Part shown: positions 4,736 to 20,167 of the stretch, piece by piece
How the letters are laid out: every line of letters starts with the position of its first letter
Position numbering within the stretch: position 1 is the stretch's first letter
From: Escherichia coli
GTDB taxonomy: Bacteria > Pseudomonadota > Gammaproteobacteria > Enterobacterales > Enterobacteriaceae
Assembly (NCBI RefSeq): GCF_003018235.1
Contig: NZ_CP027437.1
DNA: 64,000 bases
Direction: 5' to 3' (one strand)
Made by a program: the position numbers and the translations under genes
Notes under the pieces: generated by a model
Seen by the model: only the letters and a program-made list of their open reading frames with translations
Told to the model about the DNA's origin: nothing
Database searches by the model: none

Positions 4736-5094
4736 TCATTCCCCAGTTCGGTGATGGTCAGCTCCAGCTTCCCACCTTTGGTAACGGGCATCTTCACAAC
4801 ACGGTAATCAACGACCTGAACATCATCCAGCCAGAAACCTGCTTTGGTGAGTGCGTCAAAAGCGGCTTTTTGCAGATTATCCAGGTCACGGCGACGGCGA
4901 TCCGGCATGTGGCACTCAATACGGATTTTCACAGGCATAGCCAGGCCGATATCCAGCATTGCGTTTTTAATGATTTGGGCGACGTTATCGCGGTATGCCT
5001 GCCCCTCTGCGCTGACGTGCGTGCGCCCGCGATTATGGCGGTAATAGCGATTATTGCTCGGAGGCCAGGGTAATGTGATGCTGTAGGTATTCAC
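4732..5094 (-). CDS. rusA: RusA Holliday junction resolvase
   Basis: 120-aa product near-identical to recalled K-12 RusA ([38 protein letters not shown]...). Confidence 0.9.
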
Positions 5095-5999: not shown

Positions 6000-6191
6000 G
6001 CTTCACCTCCGCAGAGATCAAACGCTGGATGCAAAATATCGCAGGTGCATTTCTGCATCTGTGAATGGAGAAGAGAGGTTGGATTGTATGTGCGCATAAA
6101 CGTCCCCGTTTAGCGCAGAAGTCACCGGAGGAGTTCAAACTCTGGTGACTTAATTATGGCAAGTTGATTGTTGAAAATCAATTTAGTGGAT

Positions 6192-9764: not shown

Positions 9765-10067
9765 TCATTGTGTACCCATTGATGTTCTTTTATATACCCT
9801 CAATACCCGTTTCATCGCGGCACTCTGGCGACACTCCTTAAAAATCAGATTCGTGCTCACCTTTCCTTCCCGTTCTTCTCTGGTAGCGAACCGGTAATAC
9901 ACCGTTCGCCAGACCTTACCATCAACGACCAGGATTCCTGCCCGCGCCATTTTAGCCGCAGCCTGATTTATGCTGGTTACGGTTGCGCCTGTTACCGCGG
10001 CAACGTCCTGTGCACAGAAGCTCTTATGCGTCCCCAGGTAATGAATAATTGCCTCTTTGCCCGTCAT
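9765..10067 (-). CDS. ren: Ren (Rex-exclusion relief protein)
   Basis: 100-aa product closely matches recalled lambda Ren (MTGKEAIIHYLGTH...FATREEREGK). Confidence 0.8.
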   Translation of the reverse strand: MTGKEAIIHYLGTHKSFCAQDVAAVTGATVTSINQAAAKMARAGILVVDGKVWRTVYYRFATREEREGKVSTNLIFKECRQSAAMKRVLRVYKRTSMGTQ

Positions 10068-10765
10068 ACACTTGCTCCTTTCAGTCCGAACTTAGCTTTG
10101 ATTTCTGCGATCTTCGCCAGAGCCTGTGCACGATTTAGAGGTCTACCGCCCATGACAGGAAGTTGTTTTACTGGTTCAGGTATCGCCTCACCACGGTTAA
10201 TTCGCGCGGTCATACAGGACAGTTCATCGGCAGCCTTGCGCCGTAATTCCGCGTCAGTCAACGCATTGGCCCGCATGTTCTGATACAGGTTGGTAACCAG
10301 CCAGTAGTGCGCGTTTGATTTCCACGGATAAGACTCTGCATCCGGATACAGACCACGCTTCCGGCAATACTCGTAAACCATATCAACCAGCTCGCTGACG
10401 TTTGGCAGCCCGGCGGTAACGGATGCTTCTTCCCGGCACCATGCAACAAACTGCCCGGGTGATGGCAGAAATGGTCTATTCTGCCGACGGGCAACACGCA
10501 TTCCGGCGCTCACCTGTTCCATCGTGGTGATCCCGTTTTCCCGGAAAGCCAGAACCCACTGGCGGCGGATTTCGTTCAGTTCGTTCTGGTCACGATTAGC
10601 CAGGCTCGCCGGGAAAGTTGCCAGTAACTGGCTGAATACACCGTTGATTATCTGCGCTACCTGCTGTACCTGCGGCTTTTCGTCGTACTGTTCCGGCATG
10701 TTGTTGGCGATCCGACGCATCTGCTCACGGTCAAAGTTAATCATCTGTGCGGCGATGTTTTTCAT
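10064..10765 (-). CDS. P: replication protein P (DnaB loader)
   Basis: 233-aa product near-identical to recalled lambda P. Confidence 0.9.
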   Translation of the reverse strand: MKNIAAQMINFDREQMRRIANNMPEQYDEKPQVQQVAQIINGVFSQLLATFPASLANRDQNELNEIRRQWVLAFRENGITTMEQVSAGMRVARRQNRPFLPSPGQFVAWCREEASVTAGLPNVSELVDMVYEYCRKRGLYPDAESYPWKSNAHYWLVTNLYQNMRANALTDAELRRKAADELSCMTARINRGEAIPEPVKQLPVMGGRPLNRAQALAKIAEIKAKFGLKGASV

Positions 10766-11781
10766 AGATCCACCCCGTAAATCCAGTCTGTGTTTGTCAG
10801 GTCGAGTTTTGGTTTGCTAGCTGTCACGCCTGCCTGTTGCTTGTTACGGTTGATTTCGAGTTGGGTCCACTTGTCGCGGAGTTTGGCCGGACTTAGCACG
10901 TTACCGGACCAGAAGTTGTCCTGGCATGCCCAGCGGAACAGCACGCACATGTCGCGGTGGTTACGTCCGTCACGTTCACGCATCAGGCGGATATCGTTAG
11001 CCCACCCTGCAAAATTCGGTTTTCTGGCTGATGGCGCGATGGTCTTCACCATGTCAAACATCCACTCTGCGGCGGTCAGGTCTTCTGCTGTCCCCCACTT
11101 GCTGCCGCTCTGAATTGCAGCATCCGGTTTCACCACAGGAAGATCGTTTTCTGGTTGGTCAGAGGATTCGCCAGAATTCTCGGACGAAAAAGGTTTTATA
11201 TTGTCTTTTGTTAGTTTGTCTTTTGTGTTTACCTGATTCGGGTAAACGCCTTTACCTGATTTGGGTAAACTTTTTTTACCTGATTCAGGTAAATTTACCT
11301 CTTTCAGGTAAACTTTATTTTTCTTACCTGATTCGGGTAATGTTGACCATTCACTGACCACATTATTAATGCCGGTATTCCGCCCGCTCTGAATAAAAAT
11401 CCCACGCTTTACCAGAACACTTTTTGCAGCAGAACACTTGTGCGGCAATATCCCGGTTAATTCGGAAAGTTGCTCGTTGCTAACCCAATCCAGTTTTTTA
11501 TTAAAGCCATATGTTTTGCGCATGACAGCCAGAAAGACCAGAAGCTGGTGCTGTGTTAATCCGGCCAGCATCACAGCTTCCAGCAACTCATTTGCAATGC
11601 GCGTATAACCATCATCGAGATCTGCCACGCGCGGCTCCTTTTGTGCCGCATCCGGCACTGGAAAATTGAATATCTCAGCAGTGTTTGCCATAATTCCTCC
11701 CGCAATGAGTGTGTTACGATTTGCACCTGAAAGTCGGTTCTGTTCCAGCAGACCGGCTTTCGCCATTTCTGAACCTGTCAT
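10762..11781 (-). CDS. O: replication initiator O-like protein (iteron-binding)
   Basis: 339-aa ORF upstream of P containing an internal array of 17-bp iterons; N-terminal region resembles lambda O (ADLDDGY...); C-terminal acidic linker. Confidence 0.8.
   Translation of the reverse strand: MTGSEMAKAGLLEQNRLSGANRNTLIAGGIMANTAEIFNFPVPDAAQKEPRVADLDDGYTRIANELLEAVMLAGLTQHQLLVFLAVMRKTYGFNKKLDWVSNEQLSELTGILPHKCSAAKSVLVKRGIFIQSGRNTGINNVVSEWSTLPESGKKNKVYLKEVNLPESGKKSLPKSGKGVYPNQVNTKDKLTKDNIKPFSSENSGESSDQPENDLPVVKPDAAIQSGSKWGTAEDLTAAEWMFDMVKTIAPSARKPNFAGWANDIRLMRERDGRNHRDMCVLFRWACQDNFWSGNVLSPAKLRDKWTQLEINRNKQQAGVTASKPKLDLTNTDWIYGVDL
11180..11340. repeat. phage replication origin: five 17-bp iterons (TTACC-N7-GGTAA) plus adjacent AT-rich tract, inside O
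   Basis: Repeats TTACCTGATTCGGGTAA (x2), TTACCTGATTTGGGTAA, TTACCTGATTCAGGTAA, TTACCTCTTTCAGGTAA at roughly 18-29 bp spacing; AT-rich block on the O-downstream side. Confidence 0.75.
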
Positions 11782-12317
11782 ATTGCCCCCAGCATGGTGG
11801 TGACCATTGCCATCAGTGGACCAGCCAGATCCGGGTCCACTCGAAACATCGACACAATGCCTTCACTCATCTCCTTCAGTTTCTGGTGGCGTGGTGCGTT
11901 GAGAATGACCGCCTGCTTTGCCTCACTGAGTTCCTTTTCCATTTCAGCCAGCCGAGCCATGAAGCTATCCTGCTCAACTAGGTAACCGCGATATTCCAGC
12001 GGTAGTACCGCCAGAATTGCCGGGGTCAGTTCACGCACGTTATTTCTGTATTTTTCAGAATCGAATTTGTTATCGAGGAAGCGGAACAGCTTCTGGCGTG
12101 CACGGCTGACATCATCAGGGAAATCGATGGTGCCGCCGCCCTGCTCCCGATACTCATTCACAATGAGTGCGGCAACGACATCCTGATTATCTACAGCCGA
12201 CCAGGCGCGGACGGCATCACGGATTTTTTCGTGGCCTGGAGCTTGTTTTGTTTGAGAACGATTTATCACCGCAGTCGGGCTAAATCCGCTAGTCTGTTGG
12301 TATGTAAGTGGTTGCAT
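11778..12317 (-). CDS. cII-position regulatory protein (possibly YdaT-like)
   Basis: 179-aa ORF between cro-like gene and O, ATGA overlap with O start; family not recognised with confidence. Confidence 0.35.
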   Translation of the reverse strand: MQPLTYQQTSGFSPTAVINRSQTKQAPGHEKIRDAVRAWSAVDNQDVVAALIVNEYREQGGGTIDFPDDVSRARQKLFRFLDNKFDSEKYRNNVRELTPAILAVLPLEYRGYLVEQDSFMARLAEMEKELSEAKQAVILNAPRHQKLKEMSEGIVSMFRVDPDLAGPLMAMVTTMLGAI

Positions 12318-12386
12318 AATTGACTCCTTTAGTTTGAATTGACTGTTAAGTTGATTGCTTATTGTTAAAGAGCGTGAAATGGAAAT

Positions 12387-12617
12387 TTAAGCTGCGTTCT
12401 TTTCAGTGTGTGGAAACAACTTCGGAAGATCCGGGCGAATCTGGTATGCCTTCACTACTCCACCAGTAGCCGTAACAATGCTGCCGACATGTTCAGGGGA
12501 TACCTTTGCTTTGTTGTGAAGCCACTTATAGACGGCCTGCTGTGAAACTTCGCAGGCAGCGCCTAGTTTCTTTTGTGAACCAACGATATTGATCGCTGTT
12601 TTGATGGCTGGGTTCAT
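12387..12617 (-). CDS. cro: Cro-like HTH regulator
   Basis: 76-aa protein with HTH (LGAACEVSQQAVYKWL), divergent from cI, GGAGG 5 nt upstream of ATG. Confidence 0.6.
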   Translation of the reverse strand: MNPAIKTAINIVGSQKKLGAACEVSQQAVYKWLHNKAKVSPEHVGSIVTATGGVVKAYQIRPDLPKLFPHTEKNAA

Positions 12618-12721
12618 AACAACCTCCGTGGTTAATTTGAATCAAGATTAAAACCATGGTTGTTTTTAGTCAACAACCATTTTCGTTTGATGAAATAAAA
12701 CCTTGGTTGTACATTTGGACT
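12618..12721. promoter_or_regulatory. OR-like operator/promoter region between cro and cI
   Basis: Three palindromic sites built on AACCA/TGGTT half-sites (AACCATGGTT; ACAACCATT; AACCTTGGTTGT) in a 100-bp divergent intergenic region. Confidence 0.45.
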
Positions 12722-13411
12722 ATGAAAACAACACTCTCAGAAAGACTTAAAGAAGCCAGATTAGCGCGAGGCCTTACACAAAAGGCGCTTGGGGATTTGG
12801 TCGGGGTTAGCCAAGCAGCTATTCAGAAAATCGAAACAGGGAAAGCTAACCAAACAACTAAAATCGTGGAGATCGCGAACGCTTTGGGTGTGCGCGCAGA
12901 ATGGTTATCTTCTGGCGTTGGAAATATGTCAGACAGTACAGTGCAACCAATACAAACAACTGTCAGCCATTCCAAATACTTTAAGATTGACGTTCTTGAT
13001 ATCGAAGTGAGTGCCGGGCCGGGAGTCATCAACCGTGAGTTTGTAGAAGTTCTACGCTCGGTTGAGTACTCGTTTGACGATGCTCGTCACATGTTCGATG
13101 GTAGGAAGGCAGAAAATATCCGCATCATTAACGTACGCGGTGACAGCATGTCAGGAACGATTGAACCTGGTGATCTTCTATTCGTTGATATCACGGTTAA
13201 ATCTTTCGACGGTGATGGTATCTATGCGTTTCTGTACGACGACACAGCCCATGTAAAGCGCCTGCAAATGATGAAGGATAAGCTGCTGGTTATCTCTGAT
13301 AACAAAAGCTACTCACCGTGGGACCCGATCGAGAAAGATGAGATGAACCGGGTATTTATCTTCGGGAAAGTTATTGGGAGCATGCCGCAGACGTATAGGA
13401 AGCATGGATAG
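12722..13411 (+). CDS. cI: CI-type prophage repressor (HTH plus S24 LexA-like peptidase domain)
   Basis: N-terminal HTH (LTQKALGDLVGVSQAAIQKIE), Ala-Gly cleavage site, GDSM serine motif and downstream Lys; ATG with almost no leader. Confidence 0.8.
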   Translation: MKTTLSERLKEARLARGLTQKALGDLVGVSQAAIQKIETGKANQTTKIVEIANALGVRAEWLSSGVGNMSDSTVQPIQTTVSHSKYFKIDVLDIEVSAGPGVINREFVEVLRSVEYSFDDARHMFDGRKAENIRIINVRGDSMSGTIEPGDLLFVDITVKSFDGDGIYAFLYDDTAHVKRLQMMKDKLLVISDNKSYSPWDPIEKDEMNRVFIFGKVIGSMPQTYRKHG

Positions 13412-13491
13412 TACCAATTAAAAATTATCAACCGGGCATTGTGCTCATTCAGTAAAACAACTTAATTATTCATTTTAGAATGGAGAACTTA

Positions 13492-14553
13492 ATGGATACT
13501 TTAAAATATGAGAAATTCTCTGATTTTGATCACAATGACCCATTTTTTGACTCTTTAAAAAAAGATTATAAAGAGTTTCCTCTTTGGTTAGAAAAAAAAG
13601 CCAGAGAAGGAGAATCAGCTTATGTGCTCTATGATGACAAGCATAAAATCGAAGGTTTTATGTATCTAAAAGAAAATGATGATGCAAATGACATTAATCC
13701 AGCGCTCCCACCAGGACGTCATCTAAAGATAGGAACATTCAAATTTGAATCTAAAGGCACCCTTCGCGGACAACGATTTCTAAAAAAAGCGTTTGACCAT
13801 GCATTTTCATCAAAATCTGATGATATTTATGTTACTGTTTTCGACAAACACGTCCATCTAATAAAACTTTTCCAAACGTACGGATTTTACATTCATGGTG
13901 AAAAAGAAACACATAACGGGAAAGAGTTTGTATATGCGAGGTCTTTGCATGAGCCTTATGGTGATATTTTATTAGATTACCCTCGAATAATGACATCAAG
14001 GGCCAACAAATATTTACTGGCGATTTATCCCGAATATCACACTAGACTATTCCCTGATTCAAAACTTGTAAATGAATCACCAGATATTGTCAAAGATATA
14101 TCCCATGCTAACAGCATTCATAAAATTTACATATGTGGAATGCGTTCTGTGATGGGAATGAAAAGAGGAGATATCATTGTCATCTATAGAACCGGAGACA
14201 AAAAAGGGCCAGCTCGCTATCGTTCTGTAGCCAGTACATTATGTGTAGTTGAGAGCGTAAAAAATATTTCTGAATTTTTAAGCGAAGATAGTTTTGTAGA
14301 CTATTGTATTCGTTTTAGCGTATTTTCTGAAGATGAACTCAGAAAAATCTATAAAGAACGTCGATACCCTTTCATTATAAGATTCACATACAATCTGTCT
14401 TTGCCAAAGAGACCCAATCGTGCTATTTTAATAGATCATGTGGGGCTAAATGGTTCGCGTGCATTCCGATGGAGTCACTTTAAACTCACAAATGAGCAGT
14501 TCTTAAAGATCATCGAGTTAGGCAAGATAAATGAAAGTTTTATTATCCATTAA
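13492..14553 (+). CDS. hypothetical protein, first gene of rexAB-position operon
   Basis: 353 aa from ATG with GGAG 6 nt upstream (track ORF starts 13480); AT-rich; no family recognised; C-terminal half has PUA-like-looking motifs (GDIIVIY). Confidence 0.4.
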   Translation: MDTLKYEKFSDFDHNDPFFDSLKKDYKEFPLWLEKKAREGESAYVLYDDKHKIEGFMYLKENDDANDINPALPPGRHLKIGTFKFESKGTLRGQRFLKKAFDHAFSSKSDDIYVTVFDKHVHLIKLFQTYGFYIHGEKETHNGKEFVYARSLHEPYGDILLDYPRIMTSRANKYLLAIYPEYHTRLFPDSKLVNESPDIVKDISHANSIHKIYICGMRSVMGMKRGDIIVIYRTGDKKGPARYRSVASTLCVVESVKNISEFLSEDSFVDYCIRFSVFSEDELRKIYKERRYPFIIRFTYNLSLPKRPNRAILIDHVGLNGSRAFRWSHFKLTNEQFLKIIELGKINESFIIH

Positions 14554-14908
14554 GCCTGAGTTTGCAGAAAAAATATTGAACGGAACAAAGCGGTTCGAGT
14601 TTCGTAAAGGTATATTCAAAAATCCGCAAATTAGCACCGTTGTTATTTATGCCACGATGCCATTAGGTAAAGTTGTTGGTCAATTCCGTATTGAATCAAT
14701 ACTAAGTGACGAACCGGAATCTCTTTGGAAAAAGACGGAAAAACACGCAGGTATTTCTAAGCAATTTTATGACTCATATTATTCAGGTAGAGAAAAGGCC
14801 TACGCAATAAAAATTGGTGAAGTGGAAAGATATAAAGAACCAATTCCTATCTCTGCTCTAGGTAGTAATATTAAGCCACCACAATCATATCTTTACCTAC
14901 CTGCGTAA
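14531..14908 (+). CDS. ASCH/PUA-like domain protein
   Basis: 125 aa; MKVLLSIKPEFAEKILNGTKRFEFRK N-terminus resembles ASCH-domain consensus; overlaps upstream gene by 23 nt (translational coupling). Confidence 0.5.
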   Translation: MKVLLSIKPEFAEKILNGTKRFEFRKGIFKNPQISTVVIYATMPLGKVVGQFRIESILSDEPESLWKKTEKHAGISKQFYDSYYSGREKAYAIKIGEVERYKEPIPISALGSNIKPPQSYLYLPA

Positions 14909-14912
14909 GAAT

Positions 14913-14939
14913 CCCGGCCACCGTGCCGGGTTTTCTTTT
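14913..14939 (+). terminator. rho-independent terminator ending the cI operon
   Basis: Hairpin CCCGGCCACCGTGCCGGG followed by TTTTCTTTT, 5 nt after the ASCH gene stop. Confidence 0.7.
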
Positions 14940-15049
14940 ATCCCCTCCCCTCATCACATATACCGTTCAAAAAACCACCACAATCTCCCTTCAGTTATCG
15001 CTATGCGATGCAAGTCACAAAATAAACCCATCCTAAATACAACCAGTTA

Positions 15050-15112
15050 CATCTAAAACAACCAATAAAACAACTTTTGTTGTTGACGATAAAACAACTA
15101 TAGTTTTAAATA
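15050..15112 (+). promoter_or_regulatory. pL/OL-like promoter with operator repeats
   Basis: TTGACG-N17-TTAAAT overlapped by ACAACCA and AACAACTTTTGTTGTT palindromes sharing half-sites with the OR region. Confidence 0.45.
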
Positions 15113-15184
15113 AATTCATCGCAACAACACAACGATACGGCAACCACCTGATTCACCGTTGCGATGACCGCTTAGATCCGCAGC

Positions 15185-15595
15185 TTGAATTTCAGCAGGC
15201 TCCGGGGAGTGCGAGGGGTGAAGCGGACGCGTGAACGTCGGTGTGACCAGCTGAAATCAACTCAACACTTCATACCTCAGTCGCTTCAACGAGGCGGCTT
15301 AGTTATGACAACCGGCGGCCATCCACCGCCTGAATACGCGCAGAAGTCTCCATATGTTCAGCAGCCCAGCTTACGGGCAGGAGTTTTTATGGTTCATCAA
15401 CATTATGGAACGCAGACCGTTAATCGAGGTGCGGTCATGCCAGGAATGCTGGTCAAACACAAAGATGGTACCTGGACTGCATCAGCTAATTTACGCGGAC
15501 GGCTTTATCTGCATCGCGGCATCGAGCGCACTTATACCCGTGATTTGCTCGTGGAAGTTTTTCTCGACGGACGCGGTAACGGCCTGAATCACTAA
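15185..15595 (+). CDS. hypothetical early-left protein (Arg-rich N-terminus; true start uncertain)
   Basis: 136-aa ORF between pL-like promoter and gam; Arg-rich N-terminus reminiscent of N-type ARM but no boxA/boxB nut site found. Confidence 0.25.
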
Positions 15596-15670
15596 TCCCC
15601 TTTCCTGTTTTCCTAATCAGCCTGGCATTTCGCGGGCGATATTTTCACAGCCATTTTCAGGAGGTCAGCC

Positions 15671-15967
15671 ATGAACGCTTATTACATTCAGGATCGTCTT
15701 GAGGCTCAGAGCTGGGCGCGTCACTACCAGCAGATCGCCCGTGAAGAGAAAGAGGCAGAACTGGCAGACGACATGGAAAAAGGCCTGCCCCAGCACCTGT
15801 TTGAATCGCTATGCATCGATCATTTGCAACGCCACGGGGCCAGCAAAAAAGCCATTACCCGTGCGTTTGATGACGATGTTGAGTTTCAGGAGCGCATGGC
15901 AGAACACATCCAGTACATGGTTGAAACCATTGCTCACCACCAGGTTGATATTGATTCAGAGGTATAA
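15671..15967 (+). CDS. gam: Gam (RecBCD inhibitor), short form
   Basis: 98-aa product near-identical to recalled lambda GamS ([21 protein letters not shown]...). Confidence 0.85.
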
Positions 15968-15972
15968 AACGG

Positions 15973-16758
15973 ATGAGTACAGCACTCGCAACGCTGGCAG
16001 GGAAGCTGGCTGAACGTGTCGGCATGGATTCTGTCGACCCACAGGAACTGATCACCACTCTTCGCCAGACGGCATTTAAAGGTGATGCCAGCGATGCGCA
16101 GTTCATCGCATTACTGATCGTTGCCAACCAGTACGGCCTTAATCCATGGACGAAAGAAATTTACGCCTTTCCTGATAAGCAGAATGGCATCGTTCCGGTG
16201 GTGGGCGTTGATGGCTGGTCCCGCATCATCAATGAAAACCAGCAGTTTGATGGCATGGACTTTGAGCAGGACAACGAATCCTGTACATGCCGGATTTACC
16301 GCAAGGACCGCAATCATCCGATCTGCGTTACCGAGTGGATGGATGAATGCCGCCGCGAACCATTCAAAACCCGCGAAGGCAGAGAAATTACGGGGCCGTG
16401 GCAGTCGCATCCCAAACGGATGTTACGGCATAAAGCCATGATTCAGTGTGCCCGTCTGGCCTTCGGATTTGCTGGTATCTATGACAAGGATGAAGCCGAG
16501 CGCATTGTCGAAAATACTGCATACACTGCAGAACGTCAGCCGGAACGCGACATCACTCCGGTTAACGATGAAACCATGCAGGAGATTAACACTCTGCTGA
16601 TCGCCCTGGATAAAACATGGGATGACGACTTATTGCCGCTCTGTTCCCAGATATTTCGCCGCGACATTCGTGCATCGTCAGAACTGACACAGGCCGAAGC
16701 AGTGAAAGCTCTTGGATTCCTGAAACAGAAAGCCACTGAGCAGAAGGTGGCAGCATGA
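15973..16758 (+). CDS. bet: Bet (Red-beta single-strand annealing protein)
   Basis: 261-aa product essentially identical to recalled lambda Bet. Confidence 0.95.
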
Positions 16759-17435
16759 CACCGTACATTATCCTGCAGCGTACCGGGATCGACGTGAGAG
16801 CTGTCGAACAGGGGGATGATGCATGGCACAAATTACGGCTCGGCGTCATCACCGCTTCAGAAGTTCACAACGTGATAGCAAAGCCCCGCTCAGGAAAGAA
16901 GTGGCCTGACATGAAAATGTCCTACTTCCACACCCTGCTGGCTGAGGTTTGCACCGGTGTGGCTCCGGAAGTTAATGCTAAGGCGCTGGCCTGGGGAAAA
17001 CAGTACGAGAACGACGCCAGAACCCTGTTTGAATTCACTTCCGGCGTGAATGTTACTGAATCCCCGATCATCTATCGCGACGAAAGTATGCGCACCGCCT
17101 GCTCTCCAGATGGTTTATGCAGTGACGGCAACGGCCTTGAACTGAAATGCCCGTTTACCTCCCGGGATTTCATGAAATTCCGGCTCGGTGGTTTTGAGGC
17201 AATAAAATCGGCTTACATGGCCCAGGTGCAGTACAGCATGTGGGTGACGCGAAAAGATGCCTGGTACTTTGCCAACTATGACCCGCGCATGAAGCGTGAA
17301 GGCCTGCATTATGTCGTGATTGAGCGGGATGAAAAGTACATAGCGAGTTTTGACGAGATGGTGCCGGAGTTCATCGAAAAAATGGACGAGGCACTGGCTG
17401 AAATTGGTTTTGTATTTGGGGAGCAATGGCGATGA
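16755..17435 (+). CDS. exo: Exo (Red-alpha 5'-3' exonuclease)
   Basis: 226-aa product near-identical to recalled lambda Exo. Confidence 0.95.
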
Positions 17436-20090: not shown

Positions 20091-20167
20091 TGGCGCGCCC
20101 TGCAGGATTCGAACCTGCGGCCCACGACTTAGAAGGTCGTTGCTCTATCCAACTGAGCTAAGGGCGC
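20091..20167 (-). tRNA. argU: tRNA-Arg (anticodon UCU), argU; prophage attachment site
   Basis: Reverse complement reads GCGCCCTTAGCTCAGTTGGATAGAGCAACGACCTTCTAAGTCGTGGGCCGCAGGTTCGAATCCTGCAGGGCGCGCCA, a cloverleaf with UCU anticodon. Confidence 0.9.

Follow-up and report, generated by a model that had tools for sequence, protein, structure and literature searches.

Which sequences does the repressor of this prophage recognise, and how far does the immunity region defined by these sequences extend? The window, that is, the whole stretch of 64,000 nucleotides (64 kb) that was analysed, takes in the early region of a lambdoid prophage that resembles DLP12 and is located at a tRNA-Arg gene (argU), with the prophage portion amounting to roughly 20 kb. 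An earlier note on this DNA had proposed that a half-site, ACAACCA/TGGTTGT, shared by two operator clusters marks the boundaries of the immunity region, and that a single repressor acts on both. The present analysis indicates that positions 12387-15112 are very probably a lambdoid immunity region, that of a prophage with a repressor carrying a DNA-binding domain of the 434 type, with cI dimers proposed to occupy dyads of the form ACAAC-N4-GTTGT. The features of the region are listed in Table 1. A literature search found no paper on this immunity type.

Table 1. Genes, operator sites and predicted signals between cro and pL, with positions in the window.
Feature	Position	Strand	Basis and remarks
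cro (76 aa, YdaS / P22-Cro-like HTH)	12387..12617	-	Pfam YdaS_toxin 4e-17, P22_Cro; annotated Cro in PV340567
Candidate fourth operator "OR0", ACAACCTCCGTGGT	12619..12632		over cro Shine-Dalgarno, about +6 to +20 of pR
Predicted pR	12645..12673	-	TTGACT 12673->12668, 17-nt spacer, TAATCT 12650->12645; read from sequence
OR1, AAAACCATGGTTGT, in pR spacer	12650..12663		21.0 bits, rank 2 of 64 kb; position kept in all five phages
OR2, ACAACCATTTTCGT, weak dyad	12673..12686		13.1 bits, rank 6
Predicted pRM	12687..12715	+	TTGATG 12687-12692, 17-nt spacer, TACATT 12710-12715; read from sequence
OR3, AAAACCTTGGTTGT, in pRM spacer	12697..12710		19.0 bits, rank 3; position conserved
cI repressor (229 aa), 434-type HTH + S24 domain	12722..13411	+	Pfam HTH_3 5.5e-13, Peptidase_S24 1.2e-18
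Cargo gene A (357 aa; second ATG 13492)	13480..14553	+	PADLOC PDC-M11A 2e-133; phrog_6345
Cargo gene B (125 aa, ASCH domain)	14531..14908	+	Pfam ASCH 2.5e-8; PADLOC PDC-M11B 7e-52
Intrinsic terminator of cI-cargo operon	14913..14940	+	stem of six G-C pairs (14913-14930), then T-run TTTTCTTTT
Two orphan ACAACCA half-sites, possible degenerate OL3	15039-15045, 15058-15064	+	upstream of OL2
OL2, ACAACTTTTGTTGT, perfect dyad	15070..15083		no mismatches; 18.1 bits, rank 4
Predicted pL	15083..15112	+	TTGACG 15083-15088, 17-nt spacer, TTAAAT 15106-15111; or 18-nt spacer, TAAATA 15107-15112
OL1, ACAACTATAGTTTT, in pL spacer	15094..15107		21.5 bits, rank 1 of 64 kb; position conserved

The half-site occurs exactly three times between cro and cI, as had been reported, at 12657-12663 (minus strand), 12673-12679 (plus strand) and 12704-12710 (minus strand). 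The promoter TTGACG-N17-TTAAAT noted past the cI-operon terminator was likewise recovered, 150 bp beyond it. The statement that the motif overlaps this promoter holds for two dyads, OL2 and OL1, but not for the exact heptamers, both of which lie upstream of it. The OL2 and OL1 dyads have in common only the 5-bp core ACAAC/GTTGT, and the functional unit is better regarded, as a refinement of the earlier claim, as the 14-bp dyad ACAAC-N4-GTTGT rather than the heptamer, ACAACCA representing one version of the half-site. For comparison, four other phages were considered, namely Klebsiella ST101-KPC2phi6.1, Providencia PSTCR7lys, Erwinia phiEt88 and Salmonella UPF_BP1, which together with the window prophage make up five phages from five genera.

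On the rightward side, the organisation is that of a lambdoid switch, in which divergent cI and cro genes flank a 104-bp interval (12618-12721) with OR1, OR2 and OR3 lying over predicted pR and pRM; the cro start codon occupies 12615-12617 on the minus strand. The centres of OR1 and OR2 are 23 bp apart, and those of OR2 and OR3, like those of OL2 and OL1, 24 bp. OR2 overlaps the -35 hexamer of pR by 1 nt, abuts that of pRM and is centred at about -42 from the cI ATG. It is a poor dyad, with two mismatches and a score of 13 bits that is about the chance maximum; its sequence is the same in the Klebsiella phage, and the phages of Providencia and Erwinia have ACAACTAT(A/C)TTCGT.

A consensus sigma-70 scan calls none of pR, pRM and pL, all three of which have weak -10 hexamers, so the prediction of these promoters rests on comparative conservation; pR is left uncalled because its -10 hexamer matches at only three of six positions. 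In the four other phages the pR -10 hexamer stands in the same register, as TATTCT, TATTAT, TATAAT or TATATT, and at pRM all five phages have a TTG abutting OR2, a 17-nt spacer, a TA-N3-T element and 6-7 nt to the ATG. Transcripts are predicted to start near 12638 (minus strand) for pR, 12722 (plus strand) for pRM and 15118 (plus strand) for pL. The pRM start would lie approximately at the A of the cI ATG, which points to a leaderless cI mRNA; leaderless repressor genes have been described for lambda cI and CP-933P paaR2 (PMC8630535). A longer cI reading frame starting at 12656, as given in some GenBank records, was rejected because this start lies inside OR1, the five homologues begin with MKTT or MKMT, and the upstream sequence is not conserved as coding.

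The repressor combines an N-terminal HTH domain with a C-terminal LexA-like S24 domain that is predicted to be self-cleaving, and its translation contains an Ala-Gly pair (VSAGPG), the GDSM serine and the VKRL lysine. In a phmmer search against the PDB, cI residues 5-68 align without gaps to the 434 repressor (1per/2or1; E 4.5e-9), the nearest solved relative of its DNA-binding domain. The operators of 434 are 14 bp in length and follow ACAA-N6-TTGT. The present dyads agree with this established pattern in length, in the conserved outer ACAA/TTGT and in the variable central bases. Further likenesses to 434 are the tripartite OR, the second operator set on pL, and a Cro and a repressor with matching recognition helices and common sites, although the use of common sites by Cro and cI is predicted here. 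The differences concern specificity: the recognition helix reads SQAAIQK in the present repressor and TQQSIEQ in that of 434, the present sites specify a fifth base (ACAAC), the present Cro is of the YdaS / P22-Cro type and not a paralogue of the 434 repressor, and the 434 immunity region has OL1-3, whereas the present prophage has only two OL dyads. The DNA-binding domains are ~36% identical, and hence a different immunity specificity is expected; as judged from sequence, the present immunity type is a relative of imm434, not a member.

Across immunity types, the sites exist as specific elements that are conserved in position and covary with the recognition helices of cI and Cro. The five phages have in common the dyads, their layout and a cI helix of the form GVSQA(A/N)IQK, together with the Cro helix (I/V)(S/T)Q(Q/A)AV.KW, which reads VSQQAVYKW in the window prophage and parallels the recognition helix of cI; the DNA of the Klebsiella phage can be aligned with the window here only at 12421-13410 and 15034-15130. 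Sister types belong to the same cI family (44-82% identity) and have the same 14-bp geometry, OR/OL layout and 24-25 bp spacing as the present prophage, but they have other recognition helices and other operator bases, with no cross-matching sites. Thus, HK639 and the Stx1 phage PA28 (helix SQPAIQK) carry ATAAC-N4-GTTAT at OR and OL, and the type-B phages 4A7, PhiR30_1 and BTP1 (helix GVAQPTIWR) lack ACAAC dyads and carry ATA-N8-TAT dyads at both places. The helices of cI and Cro shift in parallel, SQAAIQK being found with SQQAVYK, AQPTIWR with AQPTVWR, and SQPAIQK with SQPAVHK.

A natural exchange is seen in phage 4A7, which is ~97% identical to the window except at 12319-12854 (cro, OR and cI residues 1-44) and ~15026-15120 (a 95-bp OL/pL cassette), where the replacement OR and OL share dyads of their own. 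In this alignment, the block formed by cro, OR and the cI N-terminal part and the OL/pL cassette are exchanged together, and the limits of the exchanged segments agree with the earlier proposal that the half-site marks the boundaries of the immunity region. Joint replacement of operators and repressor specificity is also apparent from genome co-occurrence, compared by genome totals plus six sampled genomes: of 5426 complete E. coli genomes, 1520 carry the OR module and 1485 the OL cassette, and in each of the six sampled genomes that have the OR module, OL2 and OL1 follow downstream irrespective of the cargo. Roughly 28% of complete E. coli genomes carry this immunity type, in prophages of the DLP12 kind at argU.

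Since cro and the N-terminal part of cI are exchanged as one unit in every comparison, these comparisons cannot separate cI binding from Cro binding. The dyads might therefore be targets of Cro only, or of some other factor (for instance the YdaT-like cII), with cI recognising other sequences there, and in CP-933P the footprints of PaaR2 and YdaS indeed contain two overlapping kinds of repeat (PMC8630535). Such a division of labour is nevertheless improbable, given that OR and OL have no other evident motif in common, that the helices of cI and Cro change in parallel in each immunity type, and that the cI domain is 434-like, a kind of domain established as reading the 14-bp ACAA..TTGT geometry. 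As for cII, the target of the CP-933P YdaT is TTGATT-N6-AATCAA, located close to the ydaS/ydaT junction and not at OR (PMC9986795); when considered as a source of the repeats, this motif was rejected, with no good match in OR or OL and the best one nearby, at 12628-12645, having 2 mismatches. The preferred reading is that cI binds the dyads and that Cro almost certainly reads the same sites. The earlier view of one repressor over pR/pRM and pL is thus retained with respect to the shared sites on predicted pR/pRM and the pR-like pL, but the locus is not a single-repressor system.

Beyond the terminator, which is kept in relatives irrespective of cargo, a second operator set consisting of OL2 and OL1 lies on the leftward early promoter (15070-15111). 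The last T of OL2 is the first T of the pL -35 hexamer, and the position of OL2 is the same in all five phages and in six sampled E. coli genomes. At both pR and pL, O2 overlaps the TTGAC of the -35 hexamer by one T and O1 fills the spacer, so that the architecture of pL, conserved in five genera, is near-identical to that of pR (GTTGTTGAC..AAAACAAC.AT.GTTTTAA). The pL -10 hexamer lacks the A at position 2 when read with the 17-nt spacer, and the T at position 6 with the 18-nt spacer. Upstream of OL2, each of the five phages has a AAAACAACCA element, which stands at a distance that varies and lacks a recognisable second half. A dyad OL3 was rejected, as none of the five phages offers a second half to match the half-sites at 15039 and 15058; these orphan half-sites fall inside the cassette exchanged in 4A7. 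The genes following pL are kil, gam, bet and exo, with kil directly after a 190-nt leader. A search of 12000-16000 against Rfam at permissive thresholds returned only chance-level snoRNA and miRNA matches and no known RNA family in the leader, the fold of which is no better than that of shuffles (z = -1.2) and of which the window holds no second copy. The idea of a put-like antiterminator in the leader is unsupported, there being no alignment with the annotated putL of HK639.

That pL is almost a copy of pR with an atypical -10 hexamer, followed by no N gene and by a leader without an Rfam match, would also suit a non-functional relic, a recombinational pR copy, with the leftward early genes driven from elsewhere. 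This is very unlikely, as in five genera the element precedes the leftward early genes at the same place, a cognate cassette replaces it when immunity changes, and OL1, OL2 and both hexamers show no variation in close relatives, in which the flanking bases vary; among 17 variable positions in OR and OL of these relatives, none falls on the 50 specified operator bases or the promoter hexamers. Moreover, CP-933P has a pL with the same -35 and -10 hexamers as its pR, and PaaR2 and YdaS repress this pL (PMC8630535). The OL cassette is best read as the second operator set of the switch.

The specificity of the motif was assessed over all 64 kb. The heptamer is found 17 times, against 8.1 +/- 2.8 expected, with 5 of the 17 in the two control regions. 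A similar density elsewhere, which would have spoken for a nonspecific motif, was not seen: only two further heptamers occur in the ~20 kb of prophage, which is background density. With at most one mismatch, ACAAC-N4-GTTGT occurs seven times in 64 kb, five of them in OR and OL. A weight matrix was trained solely on the sites of the other phages (20 sites, four phages), giving frequencies of 0.96 for A1, 0.65 for C2 (A 0.30), 0.87 for A3, 0.96 for A4 and 0.89 for C5, with four degenerate central positions; it places OL1, OR1, OR3 and OL2, in this order, at ranks 1-4, compared with a mean maximum of 13.5 +/- 2.2 bits in 200 shuffles. A chance feature of A/T-rich intergenic DNA without regulatory role, compatible with control regions of about 40% GC, with a two-mismatch dyad no commoner in the window than in shuffles (26 vs 27) and with heptamers at 12 places outside these regions, is scarcely credible and already refuted, as far as comparison of sequences goes, by site positions kept across five genera and by an independent matrix ranking four sites first to fourth at 5-8 bits over the mean shuffle maximum, with the sites missing from sister immunity types besides.

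A working model of the switch can be outlined on this basis. In the prophage state, cI dimers would occupy the 14-bp dyads; OR1 in the pR spacer and OR2 on the pR -35 would keep cro and the replication genes off, and OL2 and OL1, in equivalent positions on the pR-like pL, would silence kil-gam-bet-exo. OR2 beside the pRM -35, at about -42, would stand in the arrangement used by lambda cI to activate its own leaderless transcript, and OR3 in the pRM spacer would allow negative autoregulation as well as cI shut-off by Cro, which, with its matching recognition helix, is expected on the same sites. The S24 domain would provide for RecA-stimulated self-cleavage on induction. We infer cI binding, an order of occupancy, activation, looping and co-transcription of the operon; for cooperativity, looping between OL and OR, and activation of pRM, lambda serves as the assumed model. 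The scheme makes no conceptual addition to the lambda / 434 paradigm, and yields a testable operator map (consensus, five to six sites, three promoters and exchange boundaries) for an immunity type apparently without published characterisation.

The likeness to lambda comprises divergent pR/pRM with three operators, an OR2 centre about -42 from a leaderless cI start (here predicted), a cI with an S24 self-cleavage domain (here from sequence), accessory defence genes in the cI operon followed by a terminator and OL/pL, and an OR-OL distance of 2.4 kb. Unlike the present phage, lambda has 17-bp operators, a cI N-terminal domain of another type, RexAB in place of PDC-M11, and N after pL where kil follows the 190-nt leader here; the present cII is YdaT-like. 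CP-933P of E. coli O157:H7 (paaR2-paaA2-parE2/ydaS/ydaT; PMC8630535, PMC9986795) resembles the prophage in its YdaS-type Cro and YdaT-type cII, in a toxin-antitoxin-like pair in the rex position, in a leaderless repressor gene (here predicted), in pL hexamers matching those of pR and in OL sites resembling OR sites. It differs in having PaaR2 instead of an HTH-S24 cI, in being cryptic, and in its 18-bp repeats (GTTTAGTAA), of which four are reported.

Two further proposals, that OR is four-part by virtue of 12619-12632 and that the residue after the invariant recognition-helix Gln sets operator base 2, are tentative when taken jointly, the balance leaning against the pair. OR0 has one mismatch to the dyad but scores only 9.3 bits; its distance to OR1 is 31 bp, or three helical turns. 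Four of the five genera retain it: the Klebsiella, Providencia and Salmonella phages have a site with no more than one mismatch at this position, as does a divergent E. coli prophage, whereas Erwinia phiEt88 lacks it. A fourth operator over the cro Shine-Dalgarno is thus possible, not established; it would give a four-part OR as reported for CP-933P, plus a roadblock or an extra cooperative contact. With regard to base 2, in both cI and Cro the residue after the invariant Gln is Ala or Gln where the base is C (ACAAC; 434 ACAA), and Pro where it is T (ATAAC in HK639 and PA28; ATA.. in 4A7 and BTP1), which, if borne out, would represent a simple, naturally occurring code of specificity in a repressor family that about 28% of complete E. 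coli genomes carry.

Finally, the two-gene cargo, as claimed, lies inside the immunity region, between cI and OL in the position of lambda rexAB. Its GC content is 31-37%, against about 50% in the flanks. The adjacent genes match the PDC-M11A and PDC-M11B profiles over their full length, indicating a candidate defence system; the N-terminal part of gene A resembles an acetyltransferase. PV340567 labels the products of genes A and B "GevT toxin" and "GevA antitoxin", GevT/GevA being the depositor's label, and a literature search on GevT/GevA, PDC-M11 and the ECOR PhiR phages found no paper on the cargo. Given its location between cI and the terminator before OL, the pair is probably co-transcribed with cI in the lysogen, as lambda rexAB is. 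Judging by the relatives, the cI-OL interval is a swappable cargo slot, the contents of which would for this reason probably be expressed from the repressor promoter in lysogens: its occupants are PDC-M11/GevTA, RexAB, a YafO toxin pair, a kinase of the HipA family with DUF3037, a kinase together with a PP2C phosphatase, a lipoprotein or two hypothetical proteins, some relatives having no gene there, and in BTP1 the BstA defence gene occupies the same place.

The heptamer ACAACCA/TGGTTGT, reported in the earlier note to occur three times between cro and cI, is found there as described, and two more copies lie on the OL side. Seventeen copies are present in the 64 kb, compared with 8.1 ± 2.8 expected, and the rest of the prophage within the window holds only two further heptamers, which corresponds to background density. 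The TTGACG-N17-TTAAAT promoter of the same note is present, with one correction on the overlap: the exact heptamers (15039, 15058) both lie upstream of it, and the elements that do overlap it are dyads having only the core ACAAC/GTTGT in common. The repeat unit is a 14-bp dyad, ACAAC-N4-GTTGT, which at no more than one mismatch occurs seven times in the window, with five of these at OR or OL (12619 and four sites in the table). A weight matrix was constructed from 20 sites of four other phages before the window was scanned, the window's own sites being kept out to avoid circularity. The best four sites of the 64 kb were OL1, OR1, OR3 and OL2 (18-21.5 bits), compared with a mean maximum of 13.5 ± 2.2 bits in 200 shuffles, and OR2 ranked sixth (13.1 bits). 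A candidate site at 12619-12632 (one mismatch, 9.3 bits by the matrix) covers the cro Shine-Dalgarno sequence and is seen in four of five genera, a recurrence that could partly be due to conservation of the ribosome-binding site. No OL3 dyad was found in the five phages compared, in which orphan AAAACAACCA half-sites alone are conserved.

Promoter hexamers were read off the sequence and their positions checked. None of the predicted promoters pR, pRM and pL is called by a generic consensus scan because their -10 hexamers are weak, and their prediction therefore rests on comparative evidence. The pL promoter is built like pR (GTTGTTGAC...AAAACAAC.AT.GTTTTAA), with a -10 readable in two registers, giving a spacer of either 17 or 18 nt. 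OR2 adjoins the pRM -35 and is centred at about -42 from the cI ATG; since 6 nt separate the pRM -10 from this ATG, a leaderless cI mRNA is predicted, as for lambda cI and CP-933P paaR2 (PMC8630535). In some GenBank records (PhiR34_1, PhiR5_1), cI is annotated as 251 aa from an ATG inside OR1 (12656), which is probably a mis-called start, as comparison with four other genera favours the 229-aa start at 12722.

Features of the immunity region and flanking genes (window positions unless a comparison locus is named)
Feature	Position	Strand	Remark
P	10064-10765	-	
O	10762-11781	-	
YdaT-like cII	11778-12317	-	
YdaS-like cro	12387-12617	-	
Predicted pR	TTGACT 12673->12668; TAATCT 12650->12645	-	17-nt spacer filled by OR1; OR2 overlaps -35 by one T
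OR1	12650		dyad, at most one mismatch
OR2	12673-12686		dyad, two mismatches
Predicted pRM	TTGATG 12687-12692; TACATT 12710-12715	+	17-nt spacer filled by OR3
OR3	12697		dyad, at most one mismatch
cI (HTH_3 + Peptidase_S24)	12722-13411	+	
Cargo gene A	13480-14553	+	
Cargo gene B	14531-14908	+	
Intrinsic terminator	14913-14940	+	
OL2	15070		perfect dyad
Predicted pL	15083-15111		TTGACG, 17-nt spacer, TTAAAT; OL2, OL1 placed as OR2, OR1 on pR
OL1	15094		dyad, at most one mismatch
kil	15305-15595	+	
gam	15671-15967	+	
bet	15973-16758	+	
exo	16755-17435	+	
Motif shared by pL leaders and HK639 putL-like RNA	L011 ~4890-4910; L012 ~4865-4900; L013 6160-6200		comparison loci

Five phages or prophages, one each from Escherichia, Klebsiella, Providencia, Erwinia and Salmonella, agree in the recognition helices of cI (GVSQA(A/N)IQK) and Cro ((I/V)(S/T)Q(Q/A)AV.KW) as well as in the dyads and their layout (23-24 bp OR1-OR2, 24 bp OR2-OR3, 24 bp OL2-OL1). 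In the immunity region, the only DNA of the Klebsiella phage alignable to the window is 12421-13410 and 15034-15130, exactly the immunity components, and its cargo slot carries RexA/RexB homologues. OR and OL together show 17 variable positions across five close relatives; one is a degenerate central position of OR1, and all 17 spare the 50 specified operator bases and the promoter hexamers.

Sister types of the same cI family differ in their helices and, at OR as well as OL, in their 14-bp dyads; ACAAC dyads are absent from 4A7, PhiR30_1, BTP1, HK639 and PA28. The helix AQPTIWR accompanies ATA-N8-TAT in the first three, and SQPAIQK accompanies ATAAC-N4-GTTAT in HK639 and PA28. Operator base 2 tracks the residue after the invariant Gln, Ala or Gln occurring with C (ACAAC) and Pro with T (ATAAC, ATA..), for both cI and Cro across immunity types, which suggests that this residue may act as a simple specificity determinant.

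From the P gene (10426, the start of the 4A7 stretch used) to past exo, 4A7 is approximately 97% identical to the window except in two segments, namely 12319-12854, covering cro, OR and the first 44 residues of cI, recognition helix included, and a 95-bp cassette (~15026-15120) comprising OL and pL. Both replacement cassettes carry 4A7's own dyads, while the cI C-terminal domain, cargo, terminator and pL leader are unchanged. This pattern agrees with the claim that shared operators define the immunity region boundaries. The earlier observation is real, and its interpretation is supported. An OR2-like ACAACTAAAATCGT (11 bits) is located within cI at the QTTKIV codons (12854-12867), where 4A7 homology resumes (12855); although probably coincidental, it falls at the recombination breakpoint, immediately past the recognition helix.

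The N-terminal domain of cI gives an ungapped alignment with the 434 repressor (E 4.5e-9). In 434, the operators are 14-bp dyads of the form ACAA-N6-TTGT whose central bases are not contacted, a geometry shared by the window's operators. The 434-like domain and this geometry together point to a lambda/434-type switch as the most likely mechanism, each binding step of which is predicted from sequence. Occupation of OR1/OR2 and OL1/OL2 by cI would repress pR and pL, and cI on OR2 would possibly activate pRM; OR3 would mediate autorepression and serve as the Cro target, and RecA-stimulated S24 self-cleavage would lead to prophage induction. Cro belongs to a different fold family (YdaS/P22-Cro) from cI, yet from one immunity type to the next its recognition helix varies together with the cI helix, so that Cro very probably reads the same half-sites. 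The system is a conventional lambdoid, 434-like immunity member that was apparently not previously characterised, and no paper describing operators of this type was found in the literature.

The lambdoid prophage occupies window 1 to ~20,090 with its early and late-regulatory part and ends at tRNA-Arg(TCT), argU (20091-20167). It is full-length and related to the cryptic DLP12 of E. coli K-12; past ~20.2 kb lies host chromosome (the fimZ/sfm region in strain R1). E. coli R1 carries an identical immunity module within a DLP12-like prophage with intD, emrE, ybcK, quuD, essD and nohD.

The two-gene cargo does lie inside the immunity region, as had been proposed, at 13480-14908 between cI (ending at 13411) and OL. 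Its genes match PDC-M11A/B, a candidate system of PADLOC (2e-133 and 7e-52), bear the labels GevT (toxin) and GevA (antitoxin) in PV340567, and have a GC content of 31-37% against ~50% in the surroundings. Since no predicted terminator separates the cargo from cI, co-transcription from pRM is plausible. Slot contents vary among same-immunity relatives: a HipA-family kinase with DUF3037, a kinase with a PP2C phosphatase, a YafO toxin pair, two hypothetical proteins, a lipoprotein, RexAB, or nothing. The cI-to-OL interval is a cargo hot spot with at least eight different contents under the same immunity (window and comparison loci L004-L006, L009, L014, L017-L021), mostly defence-like or toxin-antitoxin-like.

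Searches of complete E. coli genomes with 12560-12960 (OR module) and 15026-15125 (OL cassette) retrieved the former in 1520 and the latter in 1485 of 5426, each on plasmids twice. The immunity type is present in ~28% of these genomes, nearly always single and chromosomal. In all six sampled OR-module genomes (the best match and five at even steps down the ranking), OL2 and OL1 lie downstream at a distance set by the cargo.

No N-like antiterminator gene follows pL (15113-15304). The ~190-nt leader between pL and kil, kept even in heteroimmune 4A7, holds a 10-bp stem (15116-15125 paired with 15158-15167), and it gave no Rfam match and no alignment to the annotated putL-like RNA of HK639. A motif, GTCGAACGGCGCGACA(.)TAAACCATGCGTCGG, is common to the start of the HK639 RNA and the leaders that follow pL in Erwinia phiEt88 and Salmonella UPF_BP1, and is not seen in the window's phage; put-type RNA antitermination is probably used in phiEt88 and UPF_BP1. 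The only perfect TTGATTGTTGAAAATCAA in the 64 kb, at 6164-6181, matches the inverted repeat bound by YdaT, the cII equivalent of CP-933P (PMC9986795). By position it falls within a ybcM-like regulator gene, with the replication genes on one side and Q on the other, and could represent a paQ-type antisense promoter dependent on cII, or a chance occurrence.
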